Source of the DNA: a virus
IMG/VR virus record: IMGVR_UViG_3300050026_000388
Location: 1 to 64,000 of that record
Strand: one strand, 5' to 3'
DNA length: 64,000 bases
Position 1 is the stretch's first letter; every line of letters starts with the position of its first letter. Position numbers and translations under genes: made by a program. The notes beneath the pieces are model-generated. The model made no database searches. It was given only the letters and a program-made list of their open reading frames with translations, and had not been told where the DNA came from. Shown piece by piece: positions 15,441 through 36,020 of this stretch.

Positions 15441-15750
15441 TATGAAAACCTTAACTATCAAAGATGGCACACATACACGACTACAAGAGCGTGGGAAGAT
15501 GTATGACTCTTTTGATACACTCCTCAATCGTTTACTAGACTGCGAGCGCCATGAATTTATAATGCAAAACGCCGAGAGGTTAGATGCCGCGTTTGGATTG
15601 TTGTTGGATGCAGATGTAGACCCTATCCTTAAGGCGAGGGCTTTGTTCCAAGGGATAGGGACTGCGATAAAACTTTTCGAATTAGGTGAACTAGACAAAA
15701 GACTACATGAGTTAGAGATTGATGGTAAAGAGGAGAACGACAATGAGTGA
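15441..15750 (+). CDS. RHH regulator fused to a TerS-like helical tail
   Basis: MKTLTIKDGTHTRLQERG..DSFDTLLNRLLD. C-terminal ELDKRLHELE resembles DLDKRVRELE in 32802..33152. Start approximate. Confidence 0.65.
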
Positions 15751-16528
15751 AGTTATAGGACGAAGTAACGAACAGATAGAGAAATGTCGAGTAAAGTTAA
15801 GGCATTATATTGATGAGTGTGATGGTGATGGGATTATTATTGGAAGAGAACAAGCCCTAGCCATAACGAAGAGGAATACATTTGGAGAAGAAATTGCTAG
15901 TATAATAGGGTGGGATACTGCAGATGTATTACGTGTTTTTAGTGAAAAAGCTTCTAAGGCGGTGTATGGTCCTAAATCAGTGGAATATCTTCCTGCGGTA
16001 CAACTAGAGGTAGCCAATGTATTAAAAAAGGGCCTGGAAGTGAAAGGTAGGGGGCGAGGTAGGAGAAAGATTGCCACTCCTGAACAGATATTACCAGGGC
16101 AACTTGAGGAGCATATAAGGCTGTATCTAAAAGAGTTGTATGGTTTACTAACGCACGCTCAACTCCAAGCTTTAGTAGTGGACCGCCTAAGCTCTGATGG
16201 ATTTAGTGTAAATACAAAAGCAGGAGTTGTAGGAGACACCGGCAAACGCGTGGATATAATAGCTGATGCAACGTGGGGTAATAAAAGAGACAGGGCATAT
16301 GAAATAAAACTTAGCCCAGATGTGACTAATGCGTCAAATGCATTGGGTTCTTTGTTGATGGGTGTTGATGACGACGACAGGGAATTATATTTCCTTACAC
16401 CATATTCTAGGAAAAAGAAAGAGGATTGGAATAGTTACGGAGTACCGGAACAAAAAGTTATAGCAAGATTAGAAAAGAAGGGAGTAAAGTGGGTTGGATT
16501 TGACGGAAAAAAGTTTGTGAGGGCTTGA
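15719..16528 (+). CDS. PD-(D/E)XK restriction-endonuclease-like protein
   Basis: RVDIIAD..AYEIK..NALGSLL. Confidence 0.6.
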   Translation: MMVKRRTTMSEVIGRSNEQIEKCRVKLRHYIDECDGDGIIIGREQALAITKRNTFGEEIASIIGWDTADVLRVFSEKASKAVYGPKSVEYLPAVQLEVANVLKKGLEVKGRGRGRRKIATPEQILPGQLEEHIRLYLKELYGLLTHAQLQALVVDRLSSDGFSVNTKAGVVGDTGKRVDIIADATWGNKRDRAYEIKLSPDVTNASNALGSLLMGVDDDDRELYFLTPYSRKKKEDWNSYGVPEQKVIARLEKKGVKWVGFDGKKFVRA

Positions 16529-16552
16529 TAACACAACCCCGCAACGTTTTCG

Positions 16553-16604
16553 GGCTCTGGTGAAACAACGGTGAAACCCAATGGTGAAAAAGCGGTTGGT
16601 GAAA
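16553..16604 (+). repeat. Left terminal inverted repeat with 4 GGTGAA sub-repeats
   Basis: ggctctggtgaaacaacggtgaaacccaatggtgaaaaagcggttggtgaaa. Confidence 0.9.
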
Positions 16605-16640
16605 CGGTTGGCAAAGGAAAATAGCCAGAAAATATCTACG

Positions 16641-16928
16641 CTAAACTATCCCAGAGTTACGAACGTGAGTAACACCGCTTGGGGTCAGCCTTACCAAAGA
16701 GATTGTGTCCCGCCCAGTTCTATCTTTTTCTTTAAGTATCCATAGATACCCTAAAAAATCAAGCGCGACTGAAATGCTCACGACTTCGTCGTCGTTAAAG
16801 CCGAACCTTCCTGCGAGCGGGTATAACTCCCCCCCTACCACCATACGAGACACGTCTCCCCCAGTATAGTCGTAAAGCATTTTAATGAATTTCTCTTGAC
16901 TATCTAACAGTTCTACCATTATACTCAC
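16641..16928 (-). CDS. Winged-helix-like cargo protein
   Basis: ..LDFLGYL..VRLTPSGV wHTH wing pattern. Confidence 0.55.
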   Translation of the reverse strand: MSIMVELLDSQEKFIKMLYDYTGGDVSRMVVGGELYPLAGRFGFNDDEVVSISVALDFLGYLWILKEKDRTGRDTISLVRLTPSGVTHVRNSGIV

Positions 16929-17027
16929 CTATCCTTTGAATATAGCTTTGCTGCAATAAAGAAATAGCCTTTATTAGCAATTGCATCCCAATAAAATCAA
17001 GTGACTTCAGCCAGATAGTGTTGAGAT

Positions 17028-17321
17028 ATGGACGATAGAAGACACCTTTACGATAAGGCGAGAATAATGCTGCTTCAAGCGAATGATGCGTTTGACAAGA
17101 AGGAATGGTACGCTTATCGCACGTACGTCGACGGTTATAATGAACTTTTAGAGCAAACTGCGAAAATCTGTGGCGACGAAATATATCACTATATGAATCC
17201 TATTGAACTGTCTAAGCGAGTTAGTGCCTATCCGATGGAGAACGCGGCGACGTATATGGCAACTGCGGTAGCCAAACTCAGAGAATTAGTGGGCTATCTG
17301 CAAGTTGATAAAGAGAAGTAA
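17028..17321 (+). CDS. Helical hypothetical cargo protein
   Basis: 97-aa all-alpha-like ORF inside the transposon. Confidence 0.55.
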   Translation: MDDRRHLYDKARIMLLQANDAFDKKEWYAYRTYVDGYNELLEQTAKICGDEIYHYMNPIELSKRVSAYPMENAATYMATAVAKLRELVGYLQVDKEK

Positions 17322-17411
17322 TGAAGGTGAGAGAGGAAAAATAGTTGTGGTGATTTGCTGTAAGTCTAAGAATAACTGAACTTAAATACCGTTTAAACGT
17401 TTAAGCGAATT

Positions 17412-18251
17412 GTGGAAATCTTAGCGCAGCACGGCATTTCTAACAGGCTTCACGAACTTGTCAGGAACTTAACAGAACTGGTTGTCGCCAAAAGTGACGG
17501 TAAGTCAGAAGTTGAACTTTCCACTGTCGAATTTGTTACCCCACTTTCCATTTTACCTCTTGCAGCGTACGGCAACCATTATGGCGTAACTATACGCTGC
17601 ACTGAAGACCCGAACAGTGACGCTTGCCGCTACTTGAACACTATATGCTTTCAAAAAGGAGTTGAATATTTTCAACGCAGCGATACAGGTCACCTTCCAA
17701 TCATGTGGCGACCGGCCAGAGAGGATGATTTTCTTACAAATTACGAAGAAGGTATATGCTTGCGGGCAGACTTGCCTAAAACTTCTGGATTACTAAACAG
17801 CTTAGAAGTACTCACGAGTGAGGTAGTTGCTAATGTGCGGCAACACGCCGAAATTGGCTATTATTGGATTCTCGCACAGTTCTATGAACGTTCCAGCAAT
17901 CTTTGCGAAATTGTAATTGCTGATAACGGGAGAGGCTACAAGAAGTCGTTCGAAGGCACAGAGTTTGAAGTGAAAACAGACGCAGAAGCAATTCAGAACG
18001 CCTTTGAAGGAAAATCCTCGAAACCACGTAAGAGCGATTTAATGCCTAGGGGTTATGGAATACGCCATATCAGAAATGCGTTTATAAATCGTTTTCACGG
18101 CAAACTTGTTATCATTTCGGGAAAATCAATACGATATTACAAAGAAAGTGCAAGCAAAGAAATTCCCCTGCCTCTTGGATGGCCAGGGTCAATAGTCTGT
18201 GTTAATTTTAATGCAAAAGACATCGACGCGCTGGACGATATGCCAGATTAA
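17412..18251 (+). CDS. STAS-like domain plus HATPase_c (GHKL) kinase-like protein
   Basis: VELSTVEFVTP (STAS), N box EVVANVRQHA, G1 IADNGRG, G2 RGYGI, G3 GSIV. Confidence 0.8.
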   Translation: MEILAQHGISNRLHELVRNLTELVVAKSDGKSEVELSTVEFVTPLSILPLAAYGNHYGVTIRCTEDPNSDACRYLNTICFQKGVEYFQRSDTGHLPIMWRPAREDDFLTNYEEGICLRADLPKTSGLLNSLEVLTSEVVANVRQHAEIGYYWILAQFYERSSNLCEIVIADNGRGYKKSFEGTEFEVKTDAEAIQNAFEGKSSKPRKSDLMPRGYGIRHIRNAFINRFHGKLVIISGKSIRYYKESASKEIPLPLGWPGSIVCVNFNAKDIDALDDMPD

Positions 18252-18655
18252 GCGCTTATAGAGGCCATTTCTGCTTGGAATTTTTCTATCATGCCTTGCA
18301 CAAACTCGGGCGTATGCTTAAAACTTACTTTCCGACTGCCGAGGCCAGAAAGCAACTCTCGCAAAAATGAAGGTGAGGTGAATTCTATATAATCAAAGTC
18401 TATTACAACAGGAGAATCTCCTTTAGGTAGACTTTCAATGACTTCCTCGGCAGACTCTCTGAAGCGCAGCTTAGTTACACCAAACATCTGATATAGGTTC
18501 ACTATAGATTCGTGTTTGATTTTCCCCCGCGGCCTATTCCAGTAAGGGCTTTTGCACTTAGGGCACACTTTTGGCTCTCCTTCGGACTCTCTTCTCGGAG
18601 CCCAAACGTGCTCGCAGCGCTCGCATTGGAACGCGGGTATCTGAATCTTTGCCAT
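18248..18655 (-). CDS. Zn-ribbon plus STAS-like (DUF4325-type) protein
   Basis: CERCEHVWAPR..CPKCKSPYW, then VVIDFDYIEFTSPSFLRELL. Confidence 0.75.
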   Translation of the reverse strand: MAKIQIPAFQCERCEHVWAPRRESEGEPKVCPKCKSPYWNRPRGKIKHESIVNLYQMFGVTKLRFRESAEEVIESLPKGDSPVVIDFDYIEFTSPSFLRELLSGLGSRKVSFKHTPEFVQGMIEKFQAEMASISA

Positions 18656-18775
18656 ATTAGATATTCTCGCTTGCTTTCTATTTAATCCTTACCTTTTAGT
18701 CTATTACTTTTAGTATACTAGCATTAAGTATATATAGTTATATACCTATTAGTAATATACTAGAAGGTAATTAAG

Positions 18776-19960
18776 ATGTATCCCCACACAACCCCTCAAC
18801 AATCTGCGCGAATCCTTCGCGGGCAGTCGATGATTGAACAAGGCTTTGAGCCTAGCCAAATTGATAATACGACGTTTACTATTCATTCTCAATCGAGCGA
18901 CAAGCAATACAGCGTCCTTCACAAGTACAACGCGTGGTACTGCGACTGTCCCGATTACCTTTACAGGAAACTTGAGTGCAAACACATACACGCTGTCCGT
19001 TTTTGGCAGGAGCTTAAGAACAAGCTCGTTATCGAGCAGGCTCAAGAAGCTCAAGAGGTAGAGAACGAAATTGTCGCCAACCGCCAACCAGAGAATTTTA
19101 CGTGCGTTTACTGCGGCTGTGAAGAGATTATAAAGCACGGCACGCGCACGACAAAAACCGGCAGCAAGACGCGGATGTGGTGTAAGAGCTGCAACCACAC
19201 GTTTACGCTGGAATCTGAAGCAGGATTCGAGAAGATGCAAGTTACCTCCAAGATGGTCACGGTCGCACTTGACCTTTACTTCAAAGGAACTTCGCTACGC
19301 AAAATCACAGACCACCTAGGGCAGTTCTACGACCGAAAACTAGACCACACAACCGTCCTTTACTGGATTAAGAAATACAGCGCGATAATCAGTCACTACG
19401 CTGAAACCCTCAACCCAAAACTCGGCGGCATTTGGCACGCGGATGAAATGAAGGTCAAGACGAAGCGGGATGAATGGTCGTGGTTGTGGCACGTTATGGA
19501 CAGCGAAACGCGGTTTATGGTCGCTAACCTTGTCACTAAGAAACGGGAAGTGCAGGATGCTCAGGAGCTGTTCAAAGAGGCAAGAGAAGCGGGGAAACCG
19601 GAATTGCTCATCACTGATGGCTTGCAGTCGTACCACAAGGCGTTCAACAGGGAGTTTTACGACCACCATCAGGAGAGTGAGCACGTCGTGGCTGAGGGGT
19701 TGACCGCTCGGAGTAACAATAACAAGGTTGAAAGGTTACACAACACTGTCAGGGAGCGCGTTAAGGTAATGCGGGGGTTGCACAGCGATAAGTCGGCTGC
19801 GGTGTTCAATCAGGGGTTCAAGGCGTATTACAACTTCGTAAGGCCAAATCAGGCGCTAAACGGGAAAACTCCGGCTGAGGTAGCGGGGATTAATTTGAAG
19901 TTAGGGGAGAATAGGTGGCTGACGCTTGTAAAAAAGGCTAAGAACAATAGTCAGGGGTAA
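18776..19960 (+). CDS. tnp: IS6-family DDE transposase with N-terminal SWIM and Zn-ribbon domains
   Basis: SWIM CDCPD..CKH, Zn ribbon CVYC..CKSC, and DDE motifs WHADE, ITDGLQSY, NNKVERLH, YNFVRP. Confidence 0.93.
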   Translation: MYPHTTPQQSARILRGQSMIEQGFEPSQIDNTTFTIHSQSSDKQYSVLHKYNAWYCDCPDYLYRKLECKHIHAVRFWQELKNKLVIEQAQEAQEVENEIVANRQPENFTCVYCGCEEIIKHGTRTTKTGSKTRMWCKSCNHTFTLESEAGFEKMQVTSKMVTVALDLYFKGTSLRKITDHLGQFYDRKLDHTTVLYWIKKYSAIISHYAETLNPKLGGIWHADEMKVKTKRDEWSWLWHVMDSETRFMVANLVTKKREVQDAQELFKEAREAGKPELLITDGLQSYHKAFNREFYDHHQESEHVVAEGLTARSNNNKVERLHNTVRERVKVMRGLHSDKSAAVFNQGFKAYYNFVRPNQALNGKTPAEVAGINLKLGENRWLTLVKKAKNNSQG

Positions 19961-20172
19961 ATCCCCTGTATTCACTTTTTCTTTTCAAAGTCAGAGCTGT
20001 ATTTCTGAGCTTTTTCCAACCGCGTTAGTTCAAACCCTGAGCTAGTCCAGTAAGCTCTTACCTTTTCTCTATCCTCTGCTGAAGGTGCTTTTGTTGTTTG
20101 GCTCGTGGTCTGCATACAACTAAACCTATGATGCGATTGTTTTTAAGCCTTTTCTCTACCTCTTAACAAATA

Positions 20173-20667
20173 CTAAGCGACCATAGCATAAATGCTCCAA
20201 AGCGCCAAGGCTGTGATTATAGCTATTCCAACAGCAAACAAGCCGGCCATGTATTTTGTATATCTCAGTTTATGCTCTGCGGTCTCAAGGACTTCAATAA
20301 ACGACTGCAACATAGAATCTTGTACAATGCTTTCGTAGTCTTTGTCAGCGCCGCTAACGTATGAGTTGATAGTTTCTGTAATATCAACACCTGTCGGGTA
20401 TCCTCCTTCACCTCTGTTGAAATAGGCTAGCATCCCAGTAATTATCGAGCCAAAAAGAAATACTATCCCGATTGCGTAAATCTCTAATTCCAATGTTGAT
20501 AATTTAAGAACAAAACTACCCAGCAATATCACTTGAATAAATACTAAAAAAACAAAACCGAGAAAAATTCCAGTTTTGCTATCAATCGAGCTGTCATACC
20601 CTACTAGAATCGGGATTTGCCTTTTCAGTTCGTCGCCAATGAGCTTATTAAAGTCGTCTGGATTCAA
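20173..20667 (-). CDS. 3-TM membrane cargo protein
   Basis: SIDSK, two TM helices, a loop and a third TM helix. Resembles small membrane effectors of defence islands. Confidence 0.55.
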   Translation of the reverse strand: MNPDDFNKLIGDELKRQIPILVGYDSSIDSKTGIFLGFVFLVFIQVILLGSFVLKLSTLELEIYAIGIVFLFGSIITGMLAYFNRGEGGYPTGVDITETINSYVSGADKDYESIVQDSMLQSFIEVLETAEHKLRYTKYMAGLFAVGIAIITALALWSIYAMVA

Positions 20668-20743
20668 TGTCTAAACCAATAAGCATGCTGAGGTTTCCAA
20701 CAAAAAGCTTTCGATTTTGTCAGAAACGATTAAAAATTGTAGG

Positions 20744-21256
20744 TCACAAGAACTTAGCTAGCGTATCGTCTGTCGTTTCCCCTTCTTTTGTTGAGAGTCC
20801 TAAGAAGTCGCCTATGAGCCACCACGCCTCAATATACTTCTCATATTCGGCAGGGCCGTTTGGTCTCGGCAGATTAATATAAAGCTTAACACCCAATTTG
20901 CCCGTTAATGCTTGTGCGGGAACTATGTAAAACTTTGATTCGGGAAATACGTAGAAAAAGAAAAAATTTACATCGCCCAAGTTATAGATTTGCTTTTTTC
21001 CACTCCCAGCTCCGTGTTGGATAGTAACAGCATAAAATTGGCTCTTCCCGACGACACCCTTACTATTTGTCGCCTTGACTTGTATTTTACATATATTCTC
21101 GGTTAGCTGCTCGTCTTTTTTCCTTATCTCAATATCGTGTAATTGGTTATTTTCCACCTTACTAACGATACAGCCCTCAAAAAGTGTGCCAAGTTTGATA
21201 ATGGCTAAATCCTCGGCCGCCCTACCTAGTTTATCGGTGTGAGCTACGTTCCTCAT
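20744..21256 (-). CDS. PD-(D/E)XK endonuclease (group I intron-associated type)
   Basis: GRAAE..HDIEI..KIQVKAT..FYIVP. Confidence 0.75.
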   Translation of the reverse strand: MRNVAHTDKLGRAAEDLAIIKLGTLFEGCIVSKVENNQLHDIEIRKKDEQLTENICKIQVKATNSKGVVGKSQFYAVTIQHGAGSGKKQIYNLGDVNFFFFYVFPESKFYIVPAQALTGKLGVKLYINLPRPNGPAEYEKYIEAWWLIGDFLGLSTKEGETTDDTLAKFL

Positions 21257-21340
21257 TATCTGGTTCCTGTCGCCGTAGAAGGCTTTGGAAACATGTTACT
21301 CATTTTCTCAAGGATAATAACAGTTGCTATGTTTCACCGC

Positions 21341-21392
21341 TTTCACCAACCGCAGATTCACCATTGGTTCTCACCTAAGTTTCACCAGAGCC
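21341..21392 (-). repeat. Right terminal inverted repeat
   Basis: Reverse complement is ggctctggtgaaacttaggtgagaaccaatggtgaatctgcggttggtgaaa. Confidence 0.9.
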
Positions 21393-21404
21393 CGTTTTCG
21401 GCAA

Positions 21405-21517
21405 TTATATATACCTTTAGGCTAAATACACTAAGTAGTGAAACAACACCGGCGCGAGGGGCTTCATGATTCATCACATGCACCCCCTACCCTCGCGCCC
21501 CCTCCGATTCTTTTTTG
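21405..21517 (+). promoter_or_regulatory. TATA box plus leader hairpin and T tract upstream of the SSB-like gene
   Basis: TTATATA at 21405. GGCGCGAGGG (21451) pairs with CCCTCGCGCC (21490), followed by TTCTTTTTT. Confidence 0.5.
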
Positions 21518-21546: not shown

Positions 21547-22014
21547 ATGGCAAAAAGATTTATGACACCAGAAGAAGTTCGGTTTGATGCGGGCGATGCA
21601 GACAATGACGACGCAAAGCCGTACACCGAACTAGAAACGCGCGAGGACTTTCAGCATGAATCGTTCAAGCTGGAAAACCCACCTTATATAACAACAATCC
21701 CAGAGGGTACCCACCCATCGGAAATCGTAAAACTCCGCAGGGCAGAGGCGCCAAGCTTCACCGACCCAACCGTGATGGAAGACAAGATTATAGTTCTTTT
21801 TAAAACCGAGTATGGAAACATACAAAAGACTATGAATCTCAAGTTCCACGAACTAAGCACCCTGGGGCATTTTCTTAGTGCTACACTCGGCGAGATTCCT
21901 GCAAGCATCGACAGTGACGACCTAATCGGCCGCAAGGTGAAAATAACAATCTTACATAAAGAGAAAGGCGAGAATACATACGCGAATATTGTGGATTTTA
22001 AGAGGATGAAGTAG
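21547..22014 (+). CDS. Putative OB-fold ssDNA-binding protein
   Basis: DDLIGRKVKITI..YANIVDF is typical of phage SSB-like proteins. Confidence 0.55.
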   Translation: MAKRFMTPEEVRFDAGDADNDDAKPYTELETREDFQHESFKLENPPYITTIPEGTHPSEIVKLRRAEAPSFTDPTVMEDKIIVLFKTEYGNIQKTMNLKFHELSTLGHFLSATLGEIPASIDSDDLIGRKVKITILHKEKGENTYANIVDFKRMK

Positions 22015-34034: not shown

Positions 34035-36020
34035 GTGCCAGGTAGCGACCCCATCGAAACCCGCGTAAAGAAACTTGAACGCAGCCATCAACCCAAAGAC
34101 GTTTCACGCATACCAAAAACCCCCGAAGAATTCTGCGCTTCCATCGAATTCGAGCCCGACCCCTGGCAACTCGACCTCATGAACGTCATCGCCACCGACA
34201 AACCCGCTAAAATCCTCGCCAACTGCGCCAGGCAATCCGGTAAAGAACTTCACGTTGACACGCCAGTCCCAACCCCCACGGGATGGACGACAATGGGCGA
34301 CTTGAACGCTGGCGATACAGTATTTGATGAGCAAGGAGAACCAACAAAAGTTACGTACTGCTCTGAGATTAGGATGCACCCCACATATCGCGTCGTTTTT
34401 TCAGATGGAAGTGAGATTATAGCTAATGGCGAGCACTTATGGACGACGCTTGATGCTGCGACCCGCAGCGCAGTATCCAGAAGTGTAAAAGACGTGCCGG
34501 TTTATTGGCCGTTCTGGAAATCACACGGTGCGCGTGGGCACGCTAATAAAAACCACCCTCAACAAAAGCACGCAAAGACACTGACAACGGAAGAAATTCG
34601 CGCGACAATACGCTATGGCGCGCGGCAAGATACAAACCACGCAATACCTACAACGCAACCACTCAAATTGCCAGAAGCCGAACTTCCGATTGACCCATAT
34701 GTTCTCGGCGTGTGGCTCGGGGACGGAACCTCAGCAGATGGTAGTATAACCTGTGTAGAGGAAGAGATAATTGGTAGCATCCGAGCGAGAGAATATGTTG
34801 TTCGCAAGCAAAACACGCGTTCTGATAGGGCGCAGGGGTGGGGCATTCTTGAACTACACCCTAAATTACGTGCATCAAACCTTACAAACAACAAACACAT
34901 CCCCTCGATATACCTACGTGCATCCACAGAACAGCGCCTAGCGCTGCTTCGCGGCCTTATGGATACGGACGGGTCAGCGAGCAGCGGCGCACGAAGCATG
35001 TGTGAATTTAGTGTAACATCAAAACCCCTCGCCGATGGGACGATGGAGCTATTACATAGTTTAGGAATACTCGCGCGCATAAAAGAAAGCCACGCAAAAT
35101 TAAACGGGCGTGTAACCGGACTACGCTACCGTATCACATTTACACCGTGGTTTAATCCGTTTTCTCTGAAACGCAAGGCAGCGCGCGTCAATTTAAACCC
35201 CGCGCGCCTGCGCAAAGGACTCAGCAAACTTCGCTTTATCACAGATATACTATCAAACGGCGTTCATAATGTTCGCTGCATTGCAGTTGATTCCCCATCA
35301 GGATTATACCTCGCAGGCAAATCGATGATTCCAACCCACAACACCCAAACGGCGGCCATCTGTAGCGTCTACCATGCTATAACCGGCTCCAACCGCACCG
35401 TAGTTATAATCAGCCCGTCAATGCGACAGTCACAGTATATGTTCCGACGCATTATGCAGGTATACCGCGCGGCCCTACGCCCAGTGAGAGCCGTCTCGGA
35501 AACTGCACTCCAACTCAGACTCGAAAACAACTCGTGGATAGTCGGCCTTCCCTCATCGGAGGAGACAATCCGCGGCTTAACCGCTTCTCTGTTGTGGGTG
35601 GAAGAAGCATCCCGCTGCTCTGACTCCCTAATCAGCGCTGCACTTCCTTTCGTCGCCACAATCCCCAACGCCAAACTGTGTATGATGAGCACCCCCGCAG
35701 GTCAAAGGGGCATGTGGTACAACGAGTGGAGTAAAGGAGTCGGCTACAAAAAGATTCTAGTGAACGCGGACCAGTGCCCACGCATCTCCCGCAACTTCCT
35801 TGACAGCCAGCTCGAGATGATGGGCAGCCGCTGGTATCAGCAGGAATATTACAACTCCTTCGAATCAAATGAAGCCTCGCTATTCAGGCATGAGGTTATC
35901 CAGAAGTGTATCCGCGATGATTTGGAAACGTTGGATGACGTGCTGGACGCCGCCCTTGAACTAGACGACGCCGAGCAGGAAGAAGACGGAATTAATATTG
36001 ACGATATAGGTTTGGATTAG
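34035..36020 (+). CDS. terL: Terminase large subunit ATPase domain, intein-containing
   Basis: PDPWQ, Walker A ARQSGK/T split by the intein, IRG..LWVEEA (Walker B), motif III STP. Confidence 0.92.
   Translation: MPGSDPIETRVKKLERSHQPKDVSRIPKTPEEFCASIEFEPDPWQLDLMNVIATDKPAKILANCARQSGKELHVDTPVPTPTGWTTMGDLNAGDTVFDEQGEPTKVTYCSEIRMHPTYRVVFSDGSEIIANGEHLWTTLDAATRSAVSRSVKDVPVYWPFWKSHGARGHANKNHPQQKHAKTLTTEEIRATIRYGARQDTNHAIPTTQPLKLPEAELPIDPYVLGVWLGDGTSADGSITCVEEEIIGSIRAREYVVRKQNTRSDRAQGWGILELHPKLRASNLTNNKHIPSIYLRASTEQRLALLRGLMDTDGSASSGARSMCEFSVTSKPLADGTMELLHSLGILARIKESHAKLNGRVTGLRYRITFTPWFNPFSLKRKAARVNLNPARLRKGLSKLRFITDILSNGVHNVRCIAVDSPSGLYLAGKSMIPTHNTQTAAICSVYHAITGSNRTVVIISPSMRQSQYMFRRIMQVYRAALRPVRAVSETALQLRLENNSWIVGLPSSEETIRGLTASLLWVEEASRCSDSLISAALPFVATIPNAKLCMMSTPAGQRGMWYNEWSKGVGYKKILVNADQCPRISRNFLDSQLEMMGSRWYQQEYYNSFESNEASLFRHEVIQKCIRDDLETLDDVLDAALELDDAEQEEDGINIDDIGLD
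34245..35342 (+). mobile_element. Class 3 intein with LAGLIDADG homing endonuclease (366 aa)
   Basis: Starts ELHVDTP. Block B HLW, block F VRCIAV, block G PTHN/T (the WCT triplet). LAGLIDADG motifs LGVWLGDG and LRGLMDTDG. Confidence 0.92.

Follow-up and report, generated by a model that had tools for sequence, protein, structure and literature searches.

We analyzed the first 64 kb (64,000 nucleotides; the window, to which all positions refer unless a locus is named) of the IMG/VR virus record IMGVR_UViG_3300050026_000388, which is 102,175 bp long and rated 93% complete. The window holds a transposon at 16553-21392 (4840 bp) with seven open reading frames (ORFs), a transposase being the product of one; the ORF list gave four passengers upstream and two downstream of it (Table 1), in agreement with a first-pass annotation, made from the letters alone, that had counted six passengers on both sides of one transposase. 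Very probably, this is an intact unit transposon of an archaeal family in which a SWIM-like motif and a zinc (Zn) ribbon are joined to an HTH (helix-turn-helix) and DDE core of the type known from the IS6 family of insertion sequences (ISs).

Table 1. Features of the transposon and of its insertion site (window positions)
Feature	Position	Strand	Description
Target-site duplication, left copy	16545..16552	.	CGTTTTCG, 8 bp
Left end	16553..16612	+	Tip GGCTCTGGTGAAAC, then repeated TGGTGAA-N4-5-CGGT(T/G)(G/A) units
Passenger ORF	16641..16928	-	95 aa; no family match
Passenger ORF	17028..17321	+	97 aa; no family match; 54% identical homolog in sister contig L103
Passenger, GHKL (Bergerat-fold) ATPase/kinase-like	17412..18251	+	279 aa; alpha/beta N-domain
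Passenger, Zn ribbon + STAS-like	18248..18655	-	135 aa; N-terminal CERC...CPKCKSPYW fused to DUF4325
Putative divergent control region	18689..18770	.	AT-rich, nested palindromes, within the 120-nt gap between the STAS-like and transposase genes
Transposase	18776..19960	+	394 aa; SWIM-like motif, Zn ribbon, HTH, DDE triad
Passenger, PycTM-like	20173..20667	-	164 aa; three transmembrane-like segments; likeness to the Pycsar membrane effector family
Passenger, PD-(D/E)XK nuclease	20744..21256	-	170 aa; PDDEXK_5, 27.4 bits (cutoff 26.1)
Right end	21333..21392	-	Mirror of the left end
Target-site duplication, right copy	21393..21400	.	CGTTTTCG, 8 bp
TATA-like box of the next viral gene (21547-22014)	21405..21413	+	TTATATATA, 4 nt past the duplication

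Both copies of CGTTTTCG are flush with the tips of the inverted ends. Aligned without gaps, 16553-16604 and 21341-21392 agree at 44 of 52 positions, the outermost 14 being identical (14/14), and a repeat finder gave arms of 54 nt at 85%. Counted from each tip, GGTGAA starts at positions 7, 18, 31, and 46 on the left and at 7, 31, 46, and 55 on the right, with CGGT(T/G)(G/A) interleaved, and the tip motif is repeated farther in, at offset 29, on both ends (13/16 matches on the left and 12/16 on the right; a score of 12/16 was attained in about 0.3% of trials with random sequence). Pairs combining a 12-mer inverted seed with an identity of 30/52 or more numbered only 3 in 30 Markov shuffles. The 14-nt tip had no further occurrence in the whole 102-kb record, even when 2 mismatches were allowed. 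The borders of the element were assigned as above because the duplication is flush with the inverted ends and the tip is found at only two sites. The 8-bp duplication, the 52-nt inverted ends at 44/52, and the spaced GGTGAA units of the first-pass annotation were all re-measured exactly.

The transposase matched the IS6-type DDE domain PF13610 with 74.7 bits (cutoff, 27; E = 1e-20), in keeping with the HTH/DDE arrangement of IS6, and its relatives carry the NCBI name 'IS6 family transposase'. In the alignment with 22 homologs, the residues C56, C58, C68, and H70 (C-x-C...C-x-H, SWIM-like), the Zn ribbon C110/C113/C136/C139, and the DDE triad D223/D281/E319 were invariant, and the HTH (LDLYFK...S.RK) was conserved; three of the aligned homologs (P0030, P0039, and P0062) pass the SWIM model PF04434 at 26-30 bits. 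With the ORF intact and the zinc and DDE residues invariant, the single central SWIM-DDE transposase proposed earlier was borne out, with a motif that is SWIM-like. The solved folds closest to the DDE core of its AlphaFold model were ISCth4, TnsB, IstA, MuA, and retroviral integrases; no useful match came from searching PDB sequences with the transposase profile. The best catalogued relatives were clostridial ISCpe7-type transposases (31.7% identity over residues 137-382, E = 4e-30), and the classical bacterial and haloarchaeal IS6 transposases were 25-29% identical over the core. Residues 1-136 were covered by no match among the catalogued transposases, and only close archaeal kin were found with the N-terminal 105 residues as the query. 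The region 18689-18770, upstream of the transposase gene, is likely the operator and promoter that this gene shares with the STAS-like gene.

Relatives were delimited with scripts by pairing the inverted repeats around each transposase gene and testing the flanks. The protein database contained at least 729 relatives of 350-410 aa, and those with a source name were from archaea; the scans gave 78 genomic, 29 metagenomic, and 3 viral transposase loci, and the host genomes had one to three family copies each. Perfect 8-bp duplications were found for 24 further elements, which come from archaeal genomes, from metagenomes, and, in one case, from another viral contig. These delimited relatives were 2495-8015 bp long (median, 4101), with ends 0.3-5 kb from the transposase gene, and no transposase-only element was present among them. 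Most of their tips read GG(T/C)TCTG. Tip positions 5-20 were repeated at an equal offset (29, 39, or 43-44) on both ends across the family; because the inner tip copies recur at a fixed offset on both ends, we regard the multi-site ends as a family trait. The first-pass annotation had placed the element in a single-transposase, gene-carrying archaeal IS6 lineage with multi-site ends, and it had named homologs bounded by closer repeats as the finding that would count against this; all of the delimited relatives (24/24) have distant ends, and the description extends to the whole family.

Some of these loci deserve separate mention. The element in the other IMG/VR contig (L082, 3373-10592) is 7.2 kb long and has a perfect 8-bp duplication; because its outermost 4 nt lack complementarity, its exact tips are less certain. 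Archaeal-type elements were also present on contigs binned as metagenome-assembled genomes (MAGs) of Acidiferrales, Desulfobacteria, and Ignavibacteriaceae (L003, L028, and L042). The L003 element region is identical to that of a metagenome contig (L087), and an archaeal-style regulator flanks the L003 element. For these bacterial labels, mis-binning is more likely than cross-domain transfer.

Two alternatives bear on whether the 4.8 kb is one mobile unit. The transposase gene might belong to a small ordinary IS with close-in repeats, situated between unrelated or solo copies of the outer repeat, as would suit the size of classical IS6 elements (0.7-0.9 kb; PMC7986276) and a weak likeness to the right end's inner part at 36-66 nt past the transposase stop codon. 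However, this internal likeness amounts to 16 nt at 81%, which is the chance level; the duplication flanks the outer repeats exactly; tip-like sequence is otherwise lacking in the record at up to 2 mismatches; and the ends of the 24 relatives, none of them transposase-only, are distant from the gene. This explanation is already largely refuted, and we consider it very improbable. We give equally little weight to an IS6-style pseudo-compound transposon or its remnant, in which the cargo once lay between two IS copies and was moved by cointegration and recombination. Although this is the known route by which IS6/IS26 moves passengers (PMC7986276, PMC6807381), it involves two directly repeated IS copies, and the record holds one transposase gene and one pair of ends, which are inverted; moreover, the cargo lies inside the repeats on both sides of the transposase gene, a layout equally found in the 24 relatives.

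The cargo is variable. When the ORFs of 21 elements were compared all-against-all, the transposase alone was common to all. A Pfam census was performed for 77 passenger proteins, and the best 25 of 40 families were considered. Recurrent among the listed families were DNA methylases and type II and IIS restriction enzymes (restriction-modification), GmrSD, Mrr, and HNH nucleases, PIN, HEPN, and Panacea parts of toxin-antitoxin systems, and, in addition, HD phosphohydrolases, ParB-N, and nucleoside deoxyribosyltransferase; no recombinase was present among these 25. PADLOC assigned methyltransferase and candidate defence models to the family cargo. Judged by these profile matches, the cargo is mostly restriction-modification, toxin-antitoxin, and other defence-type genes.

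The passengers of the viral element likewise look like conflict or defence parts riding along. The model of the GHKL passenger (predicted local distance difference test (pLDDT), 85) matches the ATPase folds of GyrB and TopoVI-B in its C-terminal half (E = 2.5e-4), some of its homologs are labelled anti-sigma Ser/Thr kinases by the Joint Genome Institute, and the gene is kept beside the transposase gene in the sister elements L002, L086, and L100. The block of GHKL, STAS-like, and transposase genes (about 2.6 kb) has about 75% nucleotide identity with L002 and L086, whose outer cargo differs. The PycTM-like passenger was matched by PADLOC over nearly the full profile (E = 5e-4; Atlas, 0.93). 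The PD-(D/E)XK passenger is unlikely to act in the manner of TnsA, since the gene is not conserved across the family. The Zn-ribbon part of the STAS-like passenger occurs alone in 8 of 34 loci from several phyla (for example, L003 7761-7952, L011 7756-7899, L012 7640-7810, L061 2669-2815, and L029 4268-4597), where it is specified by a small ORF that lies upstream of the transposase gene and is divergent from it; this small ORF may encode a regulator or an accessory factor.

The carrier is a tailed archaeal virus. At 0-5 kb, a siphovirus Gp37-like protein of the tail is encoded together with a beta-helix fibre; HNH nucleases, a PD-(D/E)XK nuclease, and a DNA methylase are encoded at 22-32 kb, and the stretch at 34-59 kb holds the genes for the large terminase, a MuF-like protein, the portal, and the major capsid protein. 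Because viral genes are present on both sides, the element is inside the viral genome and not in a host flank. When the flanks were rejoined, a plain intergenic region was obtained, consisting of the stop codon of 15719-16528, 16 nt, the 8-mer, 4 nt, and TTATATATA; the statement of the first-pass annotation that no gene is disrupted is thus correct, the insertion lying between a stop codon and a TATA-like box. These data also bear on a chimeric assembly in which a host transposon was joined to viral DNA. The record is a metagenome-derived contig, and the several 'bacterial' MAG labels among the relatives suggest binning errors in such data; however, the viral genes on either side, the clean rejoining of the flanks with one copy of the 8-mer, a GC content like that of the neighbouring sequence, and a flush duplication, which is not expected from a chimera, make such an artefact hardly credible.

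Further observations on the window concern its surroundings. No tRNA genes were found in the window, and Rfam gave no match within or around the element. Between the TATA-like box and the next start codon, the segment 21451-21515 contains a GC-rich stem of 10 bp (GGCGCGAGGG...CCCTCGCGCC) and, behind it, a T-run, with an RNA fold z of -3.5 and no Rfam match; candidate roles are leader, attenuator, and small RNA terminator. The archaeal-genome matches of the terminase (34035-36020, 661 aa) span only residues 8-71 and about 437-638, on adjacent DNA; its middle part may be divergent or an insertion.

For the analysis of target choice, empty sites were reconstructed for 25 elements, and an all-A/T, TATA-like 8-mer was searched for at 2-7 nt beyond the duplication on one side. 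Such a box was found for 16 of the 25 elements, the viral element included, compared with 3.6% of random positions in the same loci, and the elements lay in either orientation relative to it (8 and 8). The promoters hit are often those of heat-shock genes (regulators and thermosome), where the elements pile up: in L002, L003, L004, and L006, the promoter serves an ArsR-type double winged-helix regulator and its TATA box is followed by a CTAAC-N5-GTTAG palindrome, and in L059, L060, L068, and L079, it serves a thermosome gene. At four loci, a second family member abuts the first with exactly one shared 8-mer between the tips (L002 6515-6524, L086 9452-9461, L006 10361-10370, and L003 11003-11012), and in these stacks the newest element always adjoins the TATA box. 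Serial insertion into one promoter-proximal 8-mer explains the stacks and fits better than elements aiming at each other's ends, which we also considered. The viral insertion, 4 nt from TTATATATA, fits the promoter-proximal pattern, and its intergenic landing is better explained by a family-wide preference for sites just upstream of a TATA box than by luck. We propose only tentatively, as a reading that we hold to be somewhat less probable than its negation, that the target choice reads the archaeal core promoter, either as DNA (TATA box and TFB-recognition element) or as bound TBP-TFB, and that the family is an unrecognised shuttle of defence-type gene sets between archaeal chromosomes and viruses; the promoter would possibly be read through the SWIM-like domain.

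A quick maximum likelihood tree was reconstructed from 77 transposases, with support from the Shimodaira-Hasegawa-like approximate likelihood ratio test (SH-aLRT) only. The viral transposase was sister to a copy in a Methanomicrobia MAG from peat (92-93% identity; SH-aLRT, 97), which shares the GHKL-ATPase/STAS-like gene pair, and the clade in which it nested, one of chromosomal copies from related euryarchaea, had full support; the clades broadly follow the host taxa. This position suggests a virus host of the Methanomicrobia type. In five archaeal genomes with sister elements, the capsid gene of the virus had no match and the terminase had distant partial matches only, so that the host assignment rests on the transposon. 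Apart from this record, transposases of the family were found in three contigs among 2.9 million viral ones (36-42% identity), one of which is a provirus; a single-protein scan of viral contigs with the transposase was empty. The dissemination by viruses that was proposed in the first-pass annotation is in line with the present insertion and with these three distant relatives, and it is unproven, the nearest kin being chromosomal.

As for the age of the insertion, the predicted empty-site junction (...GCAACGTTTTCG joined to GCAATTATATA...) and the filled pattern had no match in viral or metagenome contigs. The two flanking viral genes had no close relatives in viral contigs, and hence no uninterrupted allele was found. 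The earlier claim of a recent insertion is consistent with the perfect duplication, the identical tips, and the intact ORFs, and it gained nothing from this search for an empty site in contigs. It is also conceivable that a genuine element has become immobile in the virus and is kept for its cargo (for example, for superinfection exclusion or counter-defence). There is a single copy in the virus, its cargo resembles parts of conflict systems, and only three further viral contigs have transposases of the family; on the other side, the transposase ORF has its full length and lacks none of the invariant residues, and the identical tips and perfect duplication bear no mark of decay. We consider immobility unlikely, though clearly less so than the alternatives discussed above.

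A mechanism may be outlined for a mobile unit transposon. Several transposase protomers would bind the tip and the inner site or sites at each end and pair the distant ends, and the DDE core would join the paired ends to staggered cuts 8 bp apart, the target being selected 4-5 bp upstream of a TATA box; recognition of the additional sites in the ends, or of the promoter complex, would likely fall to the SWIM or Zn modules. The chromosome of a Methanomicrobia-type host was probably the source of the viral copy, gained in the course of an infection. If transposition proceeds by an IS6-like copy-in, a cointegrate of virus and chromosome would have been formed and resolved by homologous recombination.

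Several points weigh against the interpretation given here. The NCBIfam model transpos_IS6 (NF033587) aligned over its whole 202-position profile and scored 122.3 bits, just below its cutoff of 125, and the SWIM model PF04434 gave 16.6 bits with the transposase of the window, below its cutoff of 19.6. The AlphaFold model of the transposase was of only moderate quality (pLDDT, 68; about 85 for the N-domain). The binomial p value of the TATA bias (about 1e-17) overstates independence, since several of the loci are homologous and the sample is effectively smaller. The contig searches recovered neither an empty-site allele nor a second copy of the exact element, and we infer mobility from the features described. 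The roles of the SWIM and Zn modules are likewise inferred, the functions of the viral element's passengers are deduced from sequence and models, and cointegrate formation and cut-and-paste transposition cannot be told apart from sequence.

Among known systems, the classical IS6/IS26 elements (IS26, IS257, and IS6100; the archaeal ISH14, ISC774, and ISPfu1 groups) share with the element the PF13610 HTH-DDE domain, tips with a GG start and G at position 7 (both tips of the viral element read GGCTCTG...), the 8-bp duplication, and the single transposase gene. In contrast, they are 0.7-0.9 kb long with one ORF, have 14-20-bp single-site repeats and no passengers, and carry cargo only as two-copy pseudo-compound units, whereas the present element has 4840 bp, seven ORFs, multi-site ends of at least 52 nt with 2-3 motif copies each, and an N-terminus with the SWIM-like motif and Zn ribbon, at a core identity of 25-29%. 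Because the definitions of IS6 by size, single ORF, and short single-site repeats do not apply, the element is best filed as a unit ('transporter') transposon lineage of Archaea with IS6-like tips, duplication, and catalytic core. The long clostridial IS6 elements (the ISCpe7 group 'clade h/VII' and 'clade i/VIII') are the best catalogued match and have an N-terminal zinc-finger extension; unlike the archaeal family, they are bacterial and 1.2-1.8 kb long without cargo, and the first 136 residues, with the SWIM-like motif, lie outside the match. ISDsp3 is IS6-type with a passenger inside its repeats (PMC7986276), but it is bacterial, about 1.46 kb long with one hypothetical passenger and no intact Zn finger, whereas the archaeal family carries 1-7 kb of varied cargo. 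Tn7-like elements and Mu also have several transposase sites per end and large, defence-rich cargo (PMC8649781), and TnsB, MuA, and IstA are near the DDE core; however, the passengers of the element include no TnsA-, TnsC-, or MuB-type partners, and the duplication is 8 bp instead of 5 bp. Elements of the Tn7-like group have been reported as absent from archaea and viruses. Membership in the Tn3 family (38-bp repeats, 5-bp duplication, and resolvase) is ruled out by the 394-aa IS6-type transposase and the 8-bp duplication. The aloposons (PMC8813620), tRNA-integrating giant-gene elements, are not relatives, and the 'IS6' matches in the TnpB paper are IS605, IS607, and IS630, not this family.

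According to the 2021 review of IS6, the archaeal members are about 700-750 bp long, the long zinc-finger forms are in Clostridia, and ISDsp3 is the sole passenger-bearing ('transporter') IS given for the family (PMC7986276); the 2019 analysis agrees with it and questions the family membership of the archaeal elements (PMC6807381). According to a 2019 survey, no passenger-carrying DNA transposons had been detected in archaea (PMC6563490). No published description of an archaeal cargo-carrying IS6-like family was found in the literature searched, ISfinder being outside that search. Against this background, a family of single-transposase elements that carry kilobases of conflict genes, insert beside promoters while leaving genes intact, and are able to reside in a virus would change the view of archaeal gene flow. 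The family would offer a compact, possibly promoter-directed DDE system for study, and the viral copy would link a virus to its host in concrete terms and exemplify how a virus gains defence-like cargo in nature. The eukaryotic retroelements Ty3 and Tf1 insert at a short and constant distance from the elements of the core promoter, whereby coding sequence is spared; their enzyme lineage is unrelated to that of the archaeal family beyond the DDE fold, and they use RNA intermediates. If the core-promoter reading is true, the archaeal family would be a prokaryotic DNA-transposon counterpart of such promoter-targeting eukaryotic elements.

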